DNA from: Escherichia coli
GTDB taxonomy: Bacteria; Pseudomonadota; Gammaproteobacteria; Enterobacterales; Enterobacteriaceae
NCBI RefSeq assembly: GCF_003018115.1
Contig: NZ_CP027457.1
Reading direction: 5' to 3' (one strand)
Length of the DNA: 64,000 nucleotides
Shown piece after piece: positions 9,719 through 57,654 of this stretch. A model generated the notes under the pieces. The model was given only the letters and a program-made list of their open reading frames with translations. It ran no database searches and was not told the DNA's origin. Made by a program: the position numbers and the translations under genes. Position 1 is the first letter of the stretch. Each line of letters opens with the position of its first letter.

Positions 9719-10938
9719 AAATACTGGTCTACGGCATTAACTACTCGCCGGAGTTAACCGGTATCGGCAAATACACCGGCGAGATGGTGGAATGGCTGGC
9801 GGCACAAGGTCATGAGGTGCGGGTTATTACCGCACCGCCTTACTACCCGCAGTGGCAGGTGGGTGAGAACTATTCCGCCTGGCGCTACAAACGAGAAGAG
9901 GGGGCCGCCACGGTGTGGCGCTGCCCGCTGTATGTGCCAAAACAGCCGAGCACCCTGAAACGCCTGTTGCATCTCGGCAGTTTTGCCGTCAGCAGTTTCT
10001 TTCCACTGATGGCGCAACGTCGCTGGAAGCCGGATCGCATTATCGGCGTAGTGCCAACGCTGTTTTGCACGCCGGGAATGCGCCTGCTGGCGAAGCTCTC
10101 TGGTGCGCGTACCGTGCTGCATATTCAGGATTACGAAGTGGACGCCATGCTGGGGCTGGGCCTTGCCGGAAAAGGCAAAGGCGGCAAAGTGGCACAGCTG
10201 GCAACGGCGTTCGAACGTAGCGGACTGCATAACGTCGATAACGTTTCCACGATTTCGCGTTCGATGATGAATAAAGCCATCGAAAAAGGCGTGGCGGCGG
10301 ATAACGTCATCTTCTTCCCCAACTGGTCGGAAATTGCCCGTTTTCAACATGTTGCAGACGCCGATGTTGATGCCCTTCGTAACCAGCTTGGCCTGCCGGA
10401 TAACAAAAAAATCATTCTTTACTCCGGCAATATTGGTGAAAAGCAGGGGCTGGAAAACGTTATTGAAGCTGCCGATCGTCTGCGCGATGAACCGCTGATT
10501 TTTGCCATTGTCGGGCAGGGCGGCGGCAAAGCGCGGCTGGAAAAAATGGCGCAGCAGCGTGGACTGCGCAACATGCAATTTTTCCCGCTGCAATCGTATG
10601 ACGCTTTACCCGCACTGCTGAAGATGGGCGATTGCCATCTGGTGGTGCAAAAACGCGGCGCGGCAGATGCCGTATTGCCGTCGAAACTGACCAATATTCT
10701 GGCGGTAGGCGGTAACGCGGTGATTACCGCAGAGGCCCACACAGAACTGGGGCAGCTTTGCGAAACCTTTCCGGGCATTGCGGTTTGCGTAGAACCGGAA
10801 TCGGTCGAGGCGCTGGTGGCGGGGATCCGTCAGGCGCTCCTGCTGCCCAAACACAACACGGTGGCACGTGAATATGCCGAACGCACACTCGATAAAGAGA
10901 ACGTGTTACGTCAATTTATAAATGATATTCGGGGATAA
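9715..10938 (+). CDS. wcaI: Colanic acid glycosyltransferase (GT4)
   Basis: 407 aa ORF; conserved position. Confidence 0.85.
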
Positions 10939-12485: not shown

Positions 12486-12569
12486 TGCGAAACCGAGATG
12501 TAAATAACGACAAAAACAAAATTGGCCGTTTCGGTCAGGGCCAACTATTGCCTGAAAAAGGGTAACGAC

Positions 12570-16869: not shown

Positions 16870-16907
16870 GTTGCTGTTTTCGGTTCCGACAACGGTTGCC
16901 GGGTGCA

Positions 16908-16990
16908 GCGTAAAACGCCTTATCCATCCTACGGTTCTGTGCTCGGGACCTGTAGGCCTGATAAGACGCGCCAGCGTCGCATCAGGCAAA
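16908..16990. repeat. REP/BIME palindromic repeats between wzxC and wcaK
   Basis: cgccttatccatcctacggttctg ... gcgtcgcatcaggc, near-identical to the repeats at 12378..12485. Confidence 0.65.
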
Positions 16991-21125: not shown

Positions 21126-22019
21126 ATGACGAATTTAAAAGCAGTTATTCCTGTAGCGGGTCTTGGGATGCATATGTTGCCTGCCACTAAGGCGATTCCC
21201 AAAGAGATGCTACCGATCGTCGACAAGCCAATGATTCAGTACATTGTTGACGAGATTGTGGCTGCAGGGATCAAAGAAATCCTCCTGGTAACTCACGCGT
21301 CCAAGAACGCGGTCGAAAACCACTTCGACACCTCTTATGAATTAGAATCTCTCCTTGAGCAGCGCGTGAAGCGTCAACTGCTGGCGGAAGTGCAGTCCAT
21401 CTGTCCGCCGGGCGTGACCATTATGAACGTACGTCAGGGCGAACCTTTAGGTTTAGGCCACTCCATTTTATGTGCACGACCTGCCATTGGTGACAATCCA
21501 TTTGTCGTGGTACTGCCAGACGTTGTGATCGACGACGCCAGCGCCGACCCGCTGCGCTACAACCTTGCTGCCATGATTGCACGATTCAACGAAACGGGTC
21601 GTAGCCAGGTGCTGGCAAAACGTATGCCGGGTGACCTCTCTGAATACTCCGTCATTCAGACCAAAGAACCACTGGATCGTGAAGGTAAAGTCAGCCGCAT
21701 TGTTGAATTCATCGAAAAACCGGATCAGCCGCAGACGCTGGACTCAGACATCATGGCCGTTGGTCGCTATGTGCTTTCTGCCGATATTTGGCCGGAACTT
21801 GAACGCACTCAGCCTGGTGCATGGGGACGTATTCAGCTGACTGATGCCATTGCTGAACTGGCGAAAAAACAGTCCGTTGATGCCATGCTGATGACAGGTG
21901 ACAGCTACGACTGCGGTAAAAAAATGGGTTATATGCAGGCATTTGTGAAGTATGGACTACGCAACCTAAAAGAAGGGGCGAAGTTCCGTAAAGGGATTGA
22001 GAAGCTGTTAAGCGAATAA
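21126..22019 (+). CDS. galF: UTP-glucose-1-phosphate uridylyltransferase paralogue GalF
   Basis: ORF 21114..22019 trimmed to [14 protein letters not shown] (297 aa); marks the upstream border of the O-antigen locus. Confidence 0.95.
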
Positions 22020-22277
22020 TGAAAATCTGACCGGATGTAACGGTTGATAAGAAAATTATAACGGCAGTGAAGATTCGTGGCGAAAGTAATATGTTGCGAA
22101 TATTCCTGCCGTTGTTTTATATAAACAATCAGAATAACAACGAGTTAGCAATAGGATTTTAGTCAAAGTTTTCCAGGATTTTCCTTGTTTCCTGAGCGGA
22201 TTGGTAAGACAATTAGCGTTTGAATTTTTCGAGTTAAGCGCGAGTGGGTAACGCTCGTCACATCGTAGGCATGCATG

Positions 22278-22315
22278 CAGTGCTCTGGTAGCTGTAAAGC
22301 CAGGGGCGGTAGCGT
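22278..22315 (+). promoter_or_regulatory. JUMPstart element containing the ops site GGCGGTAG (22305..22312), RfaH antitermination signal
   Basis: cagtgctctggtagctgtaaagccaggggcggtagcgt read directly, upstream of the first O-antigen gene. Confidence 0.85.
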
Positions 22316-22352
22316 ATTTGCTTATTTTTATCGTGTAATCAAAGTGATTGTT

Positions 22353-22724
22353 ATGAATAAGATAATAGTTGATCTTGACGGTACTTTAACTGAGGAAGAT
22401 ACAAATGATTATACTAAAGTTAAACCAAAACTAAAAGTTGTTAAAAAATTGTATGAATTTAAAAAAATGGGATTCAGTATTGTAATAATGACAGCAAGGA
22501 ATATGCGAACATTTGATGGTAATATTGGAAAGATTAATATACATACACTTCCTGTAATCATTGACTGGCTTAATGAAAATAATATCCCGTACGATGAAGT
22601 TATTGTGGGGAAGCCATGGTGCGGTAATAAGGGATTTTATGTTGATGATCGGGCACTAAGGCCTTCTGAATTTGCAAGATTAAATCTTCAAGAGATAAAC
22701 GAATTATTTGATAAGGATAAATAA
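22353..22724 (+). CDS. HAD-superfamily phosphatase (small, subfamily IIIC-like)
   Basis: ORF 22275..22724 trimmed to MNKIIVDLDGTLT, the HAD motif I DxDGT; longer upstream start rejected because it would run through the ops element; AT-rich. Confidence 0.6.
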   Translation: MNKIIVDLDGTLTEEDTNDYTKVKPKLKVVKKLYEFKKMGFSIVIMTARNMRTFDGNIGKINIHTLPVIIDWLNENNIPYDEVIVGKPWCGNKGFYVDDRALRPSEFARLNLQEINELFDKDK

Positions 22725-42529: not shown

Positions 42530-42577
42530 TTTCTTATTCCTCTTTAAACCTGTCTGAACCGTTATCAACCGCGCAAT

Positions 42578-42610
42578 AAAAAAGCCCCCGGAAGGTGATC
42601 TTCCGGGGGC
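42578..42610 (-). terminator. his attenuator terminator hairpin
   Basis: Minus strand reads gcccccggaag atcac cttccgggggc followed by a U-run, between hisL and hisG. Confidence 0.85.
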
Positions 42611-42674
42611 TTTCTCATGCGTTCATGCACCACTGGAAGATCTGAATGTCTTCCAGCACACATCGCCTGAAAGA

Positions 42675-42725
42675 CTAGTCAGGATGATGGTGATGATGGT
42701 GGTGTTTAAATTGAACGCGTGTCAT
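42675..42725 (-). CDS. hisL: his operon leader peptide, 16 aa with seven consecutive His codons
   Basis: Minus strand atg aca cgc gtt caa ttt aaa cac cac cat cat cac cat cat cct gac tag = MTRVQFKHHHHHHHPD. Confidence 0.95.
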   Translation of the reverse strand: MTRVQFKHHHHHHHPD

Positions 42726-45393: not shown

Positions 45394-45659
45394 AGAAAAA
45401 TTATTATGACAAGCCTCTCATTCTCTTGTCATTTCCCCCCCATTTAGGCACAATGCGCCGCTGTCAAAAAATGACTAAAAACCGACGTTTCATCAGCGTC
45501 GGTTATTTTTTGCTTCAAACCAATCATTCATACCAAGAGGCCGGGCTTCGTACCGGATAGATATTTACTAAAAATCGACAGTTGTTGTCGCTGAGGAATC
45601 CAAAAAAATGGGGCAATTTTTTGCTTACGCGACGGTTATCACCGTAAAGGAGAATGACC

Positions 45660-51459: not shown

Positions 51460-51933
51460 ATGAACTACGAGATTAAGCAGGAAGATAAACGTACCGTTGC
51501 AGGTTTCCATCTCGTTGGCCCGTGGGAACAGACGGTAAAGAAAGGCTTTGAGCAGTTGATGATGTGGGTAGATAGCAAAAATATTGTGCCGAAGGAGTGG
51601 GTTGCTGTCTATTACGACAATCCAGATGAAACACCCGCCGAAAAATTACGCTGCGACACCGTCGTGACGGTGCCGGGTTACTTTACGCTTCCCGAAAACA
51701 GTGAGGGCGTCATTCTGACAGAAATTTCAGGTGGTCAGTATGCGGTGGCGGTAGCTCGTGTAGTCGGTGATGATTTTGCTAAACCCTGGTATCAGTTCTT
51801 TAATAGCCTCTTGCAGGACAGTGCTTATGAAATGTTACCAAAGCCCTGCTTCGAGGTTTATTTGAACAATGGCGCGGAAGATGGGTACTGGGATATCGAA
51901 ATGTATGTTGCGGTGCAGCCAAAACATCACTAA
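51460..51933 (+). CDS. sbmC: DNA gyrase inhibitor SbmC/GyrI
   Basis: 157 aa; [24 protein letters not shown]. Confidence 0.9.
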
Positions 51934-57578: not shown

Positions 57579-57654
57579 TGGCTCCTCTGACTGGACTCGA
57601 ACCAGTGACATACGGATTAACAGTCCGCCGTTCTACCGACTGAACTACAGAGGA
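57579..57654 (-). tRNA. asnV: tRNA-Asn (GUU anticodon)
   Basis: 76 nt; reverse complement reads TCCTCTGTAGTTCAGTCGGTAGAACGGCGGACTGTTAATCCGTATGTCACTGGTTCGAGTCCAGTCAGAGGAGCCA; gene name assigned from K-12 synteny. Confidence 0.95.

Follow-up and report, generated by a model that had tools for sequence, protein, structure and literature searches.

Genomic context of the O-antigen operon

We analyzed a 64-kb stretch of Escherichia coli DNA (hereafter the window), in which the colanic-acid (wca) genes are followed by galF, an O-antigen cluster, gnd, ugd, wzzB and the his operon. The O-antigen cluster shares 99.8% identity with that of strain Z1323HEC0477 and 99.5% identity with that of an O20:H12 strain, and in both of these genomes RefSeq labels wzx and wzy as "O20/O137 family." The GC content is 0.28-0.34 across 22200-31400 compared with 0.45-0.56 in the flanks, and it recovers at gnd. 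A cluster of ~30% GC is the kind of DNA that is counter-silenced by RfaH (PMC9765446). The features at the left end of the cluster are listed in Table 1. For annotation, their value is that the left boundary of the O-antigen cluster is fixed, the operon leader is identified, and the start of the first gene is moved to 22353 from 22275.

Table 1. Features around the leader of the O-antigen operon, in window coordinates.
Feature	Coordinates	Strand	Remarks
galF	21126..22019	+	RefSeq galF of the 99.8%-identical comparison locus L001, 15107-16000, offset 6019
Conserved galF-to-JUMPstart intergenic region	22020..22277	+	Presumed site of the operon promoter and of the 5′ part of the leader
JUMPstart element, 39 nt	22278..22316	+	Full-length RF01707 match; 38/39 identity to the K-12 rfb JUMPstart
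JUMPstart stem-loop	22285..22303	+	CUGGU (22285-22289) paired to GCCAG (22299-22303); loop of 9 nt
ops element GGCGGTAGCGTA	22305..22316	+	G1-G8 and T11 canonical; position 12 (22316) is A, not G
AT-rich serogroup-specific spacer, ops to first start codon	22317..22352	+	Homology to other serogroups stops at 22315
First O-antigen gene, 123-aa HAD-family phosphatase	22353..22724	+	Start ATG 22353, not ATG 22275
O20/O137-type O-antigen operon	22353..31414	+	10 tightly packed genes, ~30% GC; presumed antitermination target

Several other features of the window were recorded. The first three genes of the cluster (22353-25065) encode a 123-aa HAD phosphatase (PDB 1xpj, E 5e-56), a 529-aa protein with a weak APH-kinase match and for which a PDB relative was not found, and a 251-aa nucleotidyltransferase (PDB 4evw, "nucleoside-diphosphate-sugar pyrophosphorylase," E 5e-83). 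From these matches, they look like an uncharacterized sugar-activation module. A 2019 review noted that the published O20 structure, which includes ribofuranose, is at odds with the galF-gnd cluster (PMC7685785), and the module may be relevant to this mismatch. The wzy gene (25071-26296) is frameshifted, as the poly-G tract at 25176-25183 has 8 G, one fewer than the 9 G of two other O20-type genomes. The 9.5-kb alignment has no other gap, and this one splits the 408-aa wzy into ORFs of 45 aa and 356 aa. The shorter tract may be a homopolymer sequencing error; otherwise, it would reflect slipped-strand inactivation of wzy, which would give semi-rough LPS.

Outside the cluster, Rfam matches above the gathering score comprise the algC RNA (between cpsB and cpsG), the histidine operon leader, the sRNA STnc240 and three tRNA genes with identical scores. 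The sites of these matches are 12516-12565 (+), 42576-42699 (-), 45439-45513 (+), 57582-57654 (-), 59990-60062 (-) and 61811-61883 (+). The window and L001 do not align continuously between wzxC and wcaK (~16897-16988), where 92 nt of the window are aligned twice and ~390 nt are present in L001 only. This suggests a variable intergenic region that contains repeats.

A JUMPstart/ops leader between galF and the operon

We identify 22278-22316 (+), with high confidence, as the JUMPstart/ops leader of the E. coli O20/O137-type O-antigen operon, where it would serve RfaH loading and antitermination. The Rfam covariance model JUMPstart (RF01707) matches over its full length (model positions 1-38 of 38) with 56.9 bits, well above the gathering score of 35, and with E-values of 2e-12 in a 601-nt region and 2.1e-10 in the whole window. 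A gathering-score scan of the 64-kb window returned this JUMPstart match and no other. The sequence CAGTGCTCTGGTAGCTGTAAAGCCAGGGGCGGTAGCGT occupies 22278-22315 on the + strand, and 38 of the 39 bases of the element are the same in K-12, O18 and other rfb leaders. Its orientation is that of the cluster: the element is found on the sense strand of the 5′ leader, and the genes of this long surface-polysaccharide cluster are all on the + strand. The identification thus rests on the model match and the identity to other rfb leaders, together with the sense-strand position between galF and a Wzx/Wzy cluster and the likeness to the wza JUMPstart described below. The element itself is a textbook one and already known.

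An earlier note on this DNA had placed a JUMPstart downstream of galF and proposed an alignment with other rfb leaders as a check; the unique full-length match and the 38 shared bases bear it out. The distances that it gave also agree with ours. The element begins 259 nt past the galF stop at 22019 (~260 bp in the note), and ATG 22353 lies 37 nt after 22315, or 36 from 22316 (~40 bp in the note). JUMPstart was reportedly described by Hobbs and Reeves in 1994 as a 39-bp element. The note likewise reported 39 bp, which is correct for the element, but assigned it to 22278-22315, an interval of 38 nt; the 39th base is 22316.

We considered whether the 5′ half of JUMPstart acts as RNA. Rfam lists JUMPstart among the cis-regulatory RNAs, with a stem-loop that is conserved (Weinberg 2010, PMC2864571), and the stem-loop at 22285-22303 might affect mRNA stability, processing or ribosome access, beside or instead of ops and RfaH. 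The structure line of the Rfam alignment gives the stem pairs C-G, U-A, G-C, G-C and U-G with no non-canonical flags, and the centroid fold of the leader contains the same 22285-22289/22299-22303 stem. Among the JUMPstart matches listed in the species scan described below, the first pair is C-G in 83 copies and U-G in 34, both of which can form. However, this C/U change is one-sided rather than compensatory, and the pattern used for the scan fixed the 3′ half of the stem. Moreover, the predicted RNA fold of 22200-22360 does not exceed that of shuffled sequence in stability (z -0.8), and the published ops mechanism is DNA-based (PMC5995543, PMC11001881). Overall, we consider an RNA role of this kind unlikely and prefer the reading of the element as an RfaH loading site.

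Two consensus scans of the galF-JUMPstart region for a sigma-70 promoter, one built-in and one relaxed, returned weak matches only, and no promoter is named here. The matches were 9/12 at 21997-22026, which overlaps the galF stop, and 8/12 at 22094-22123. A mir-15 match at 22046-22121 was discarded as noise, given its 17 bits against a gathering score of 57.

Start of the first O-antigen gene

The frame from 22275 to 22724 is open without a stop. If translation began at ATG 22275, the first protein would have 149 aa and the JUMPstart stretch would be coding, as part of its N-terminus. Homology points to a shorter form. Residues 1-123 of PDB 1xpj, a solved Vibrio cholerae homolog of 126 aa, align to residues 27-149 of the long ORF (E 5e-56), which places residue 1 of the homolog at ATG 22353. 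RefSeq gives an identical 123-aa protein with the same start in two O20-type genomes (WP_024192325.1). The Pfam HAD match starts at residue 29-30 of the long ORF, and the extra 26 residues have no match. HAD phosphatases carry their catalytic motif near the N-terminus, and this motif (DLDGT) is found at residues 6-10 of the 123-aa form. In addition, the long ORF opens with 14 codons that are JUMPstart itself, which is conserved before unrelated first genes in other serogroups. Given the 1xpj alignment, the RefSeq start, the onset of the Pfam match and the nature of these 14 codons, we assign the start of gene 1 to ATG 22353 on sequence grounds, and the chance that the 149-aa protein is made appears negligible. 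The earlier note had arrived at the same start by arguing that the element rules out the longer one. The short start is retained here, but the reasoning is not, as translation from an ATG further upstream is not physically prevented by a leader element.

When read by eye, the spacer taatcaaagtgattgttATG (22317-22352) has no recognizable Shine-Dalgarno sequence before ATG 22353. That RfaH aids ribosome recruitment on operons without a clear Shine-Dalgarno is a published idea (PMC5995543). The absence of one here fits with such recruitment, and is not evidence for it.

An ops variant with A at position 12

The ops element is said to have been defined biochemically by Artsimovitch and Landick in 2002. 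Its canonical form is GGCGGTAGCGTG, compared with GGCGGTAGCGTA in the window. At 22305-22312, the core GGCGGTAG is found without any change on the coding, non-template (+) strand. All of the bases needed for RfaH binding (C3, G4, G5, T6, A7 and G8) are intact, as is T11 (22315). Position 12 (22316), the 39th base of the Hobbs and Reeves element, is A in the window and G in both K-12 and the Rfam consensus. The pause dinucleotide T11G12, which is common to all validated E. coli RfaH targets (PMC5995543), is thus present only in its first base, and we class 22305-22316 as a putative ops variant (G12A) rather than as canonical ops. A sequencing error can be dismissed as the source of A12, which the three O20-type genomes in the comparison all have in common. 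The earlier note had described the motif as present exactly; this is true of the 8-nt core and of 38 of the 39 bases, whereas the 12-nt ops has one mismatch. Its view that nothing in the sequence would refute the assignment was too strong, given that position 12 departs from the TG of validated targets.

The core GGCGGTAG occurs three times in the window, where 1.19 copies are expected, and at least three copies were found in 11 of 100 shuffles. As this count is not significant, the evidence for ops is the full 39-nt context and not the core. The other two copies, at 10701-10708 (+), reading GGCGGTAGGCGG and located inside cpsB, and at 51747-51754 (+), reading GGCGGTAGCTCG, have neither T11G12 nor a JUMPstart context and were read as chance occurrences. 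With the start of gene 1 at 22353, the ops of the leader is untranslated and lies outside the translated genes. In a uropathogenic strain, the RfaH-bound operons all had ops in the 5′ leader and were all under H-NS/StpA filaments, whereas ops-like sites within coding regions showed no RfaH binding (PMC9765446). A DNA fold of the 12-mer gave a marginal hairpin (-0.9 kcal/mol), which is uninformative alone.

The serogroup junction lies between ops positions 11 and 12

Of 5426 complete E. coli genomes, ~2640 carry the galF-JUMPstart intergenic region with 95-99% identity to the window. For almost all of the ~2640, the alignment stops at query position 296, which corresponds to 22315 in the window. 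We aligned ten loci in detail (the window, two O20-type genomes, O174, a cluster with an "O8 family" wzx, K-12, an rfbB-first strain, O18 and two others), which represent 6 cluster types. Across these, the intergenic columns are nearly invariant and the JUMPstart columns are invariant up to the final GGCGGTAGCGT. The base that follows is G, A or T depending on the cluster type, and the loci do not align beyond it. The O20-type genomes remain identical to each other through 22317-22352, where homology to the other serogroups has already ended. Conservation between serogroups thus extends as far as ops position 11, and the serogroup-specific DNA begins with position 12. The 38-nt interval of the earlier note stops exactly at this junction.

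We determined how common other bases are at position 12 by searching the complete E. coli genomes with the exact 27 bases before it plus each of the four bases, using a megablast word size of 28 that forces the match. Position 12 is G in 2153 genomes, A in 121, T in 34 and C in none. These are counts of genomes with the exact upstream 27-mer rather than of independent serogroups, are biased by clone sampling, and represent database frequencies, not evolutionary rates. A12 was seen with at least three unrelated clusters, namely the O20 type, O174 and a cluster whose wzx is labeled "O8 family O-antigen flippase" by RefSeq.

A wider view came from a contig scan of one genome per species with the pattern GGTAGC-N(5-7)-GCCAGGGGCGGTAG. 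This found at least 120 stretches, and 117 of the matches listed are real JUMPstarts (Enterobacterales). Among these 117, ops positions 9 and 11 are C and T, respectively, in every case. Position 10 is G in 98, A in 13, C in 4 and T in 2, and position 12 is G in 95, T in 10, A in 9 and C in 3, so that ~19% of the matches listed are without G12. A12 is therefore a recurrent minority state, and among the matches listed T11 is invariant while G12 is frequent rather than universal. The recurrence and persistence of A12 in nature argue for a working element.

Contigs labeled Arthrobacter sp. GMC3, Erysipelotrichia MAG and Peptococcaceae MAG (L025, L026, L037 and L063) carry enterobacterial JUMPstarts, and one of them (L063) continues exactly as the E. 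coli K-12 rfb leader. These look like contaminating or mis-binned contigs. The CATA variant of E. coli E69 (K30), which precedes ORFs of 292 and 220 aa, was dropped as a candidate for a validated A12 example, and no experiment tied to this copy was found.

Proposed action of RfaH at the G12A ops

The ops element is recognized in its non-template strand, which adopts a small hairpin with a flipped-out T6, and C3-G8 are needed for RfaH binding (PMC5995543). The bases flanking the core make a consensus pause (PMC5995543), and cryo-EM structures of the complex paused at ops show G12 inside the CRE pocket of RNA polymerase (PMC11001881). In the window, the RfaH-contacting bases and T11 are intact and the leader precedes a long AT-rich operon with all genes on one strand, so that RfaH would be expected to load and to suppress polarity here. 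By analogy with these published systems, the ops of the window very probably loads the antitermination factor RfaH, the gene for which is outside the window. For other clusters, deletion of JUMPstart or of rfaH is reported to lower the expression of distal genes, in papers cited by PMC2864571.

Drawing all functional steps from published work, we propose rightward transcription from a start within the conserved galF-JUMPstart intergenic region. Once RNA polymerase arrives at ops, the non-template GGCGGTAG would form its hairpin, with C3 and G8 paired and G5 and T6 exposed, and would be recognized by RfaH. The factor would then be kept on the polymerase, excluding NusG, and would block Rho-dependent polarity and H-NS-imposed pausing across the ~9 kb AT-rich cluster. 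By bridging to the ribosome, RfaH could also help translation of the first gene, which is without a clear Shine-Dalgarno. The expected effect of A12 is a weaker pause at U11, because the canonical G12 sits in the CRE pocket and is required for a strong U11 pause. Loading of RfaH would be retained, possibly with lower efficiency.

The change could also be more severe, such that ops is crippled by G12A and survives in the O20-type serogroup mainly as a relic of the left recombination junction, with little RfaH loading. The role of G12 in the paused complex, the TG at positions 11 and 12 of all validated E. coli targets, and the exact end of between-serogroup homology at T11 are consistent with this, as is the finding that in vitro a G12C change abolishes the U11 pause (0.55% paused RNA, compared with 11.3% for the wild type; PMC5995543). 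However, RfaH is still recruited to the G12C element in vitro, and C9 and G10 are further positions at which it can load (PMC5995543). In a lux reporter, the RfaH effect was 35.9-fold for the wild type, 20.0-fold for G12C and 4.8-fold for T11G, and expression of G12C with RfaH was 25% of the wild-type level (PMC5995543). The share of listed JUMPstart matches that are without G12 while all retain T11, and the fixation of A12 in several widespread cluster types, also weigh against a crippled element. We thus consider this reading very unlikely, and favor an ops that would still load RfaH from a weakened pause.

A further suggestion follows from the position of the junction. If each cluster brings its own position-12 base, the pause at ops might be weaker, and RfaH loading reduced, in clusters with A12 (O20 type, O174 and others) or T12, and the level of O-antigen expression could be a serogroup-linked trait that is set by one junction base. 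We offer this tentatively and regard it as possible rather than probable. If true, O-antigen expression would be tuned by a single base at a recombination junction. The natural G12A change could be used directly to gauge the contribution of the U11 pause to RfaH loading in vivo. Serogroups might, in addition, differ in their dependence on RfaH, a small question in a well-understood system.

Comparison with known systems

Among the closest known counterparts is the rfb JUMPstart of K-12, upstream of rfbB. It shares with the window element 38 of 39 bases, the position downstream of galF, the strand and the stem-loop, and the 258-nt intergenic region upstream is also 95-99% identical to that of the window. 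The two differ in the last base of the element (G in K-12, A in the window), and the downstream sequences are unrelated. The first gene is rfbB/rmlB in K-12, whereas it encodes a HAD phosphatase in the window.

Compared with ops as defined biochemically and structurally in published work (Zuber 2018, PMC5995543; PMC11001881), G1-G8 (with the C3:G8 pair and G5/T6), C9, G10 and T11 are all the same in the window. However, the window has A in place of G12, which is the CRE-pocket G and the +1 G of the consensus pause.

An O20-type genome has a second JUMPstart, in the leader of the colanic-acid operon, ~180 nt upstream of wza and ~2.4 kb beyond the left edge of the window. This element (RF01707, 57.3 bits) has an identical GGGGCGGTAGCGT and, like the window element, leads a long polysaccharide operon. 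In contrast to the window element, it has G12, and its 5′ half (UAUUGGUAGCUAAAAAGCC) is different.

A further parallel is found in the UpxY leader sites of Bacteroides, which follow the same logic in that a site in the leader of a polysaccharide operon loads a specialized NusG paralog (PMC11685472). The sequence, the factor and the taxa all differ from those of the window ops.
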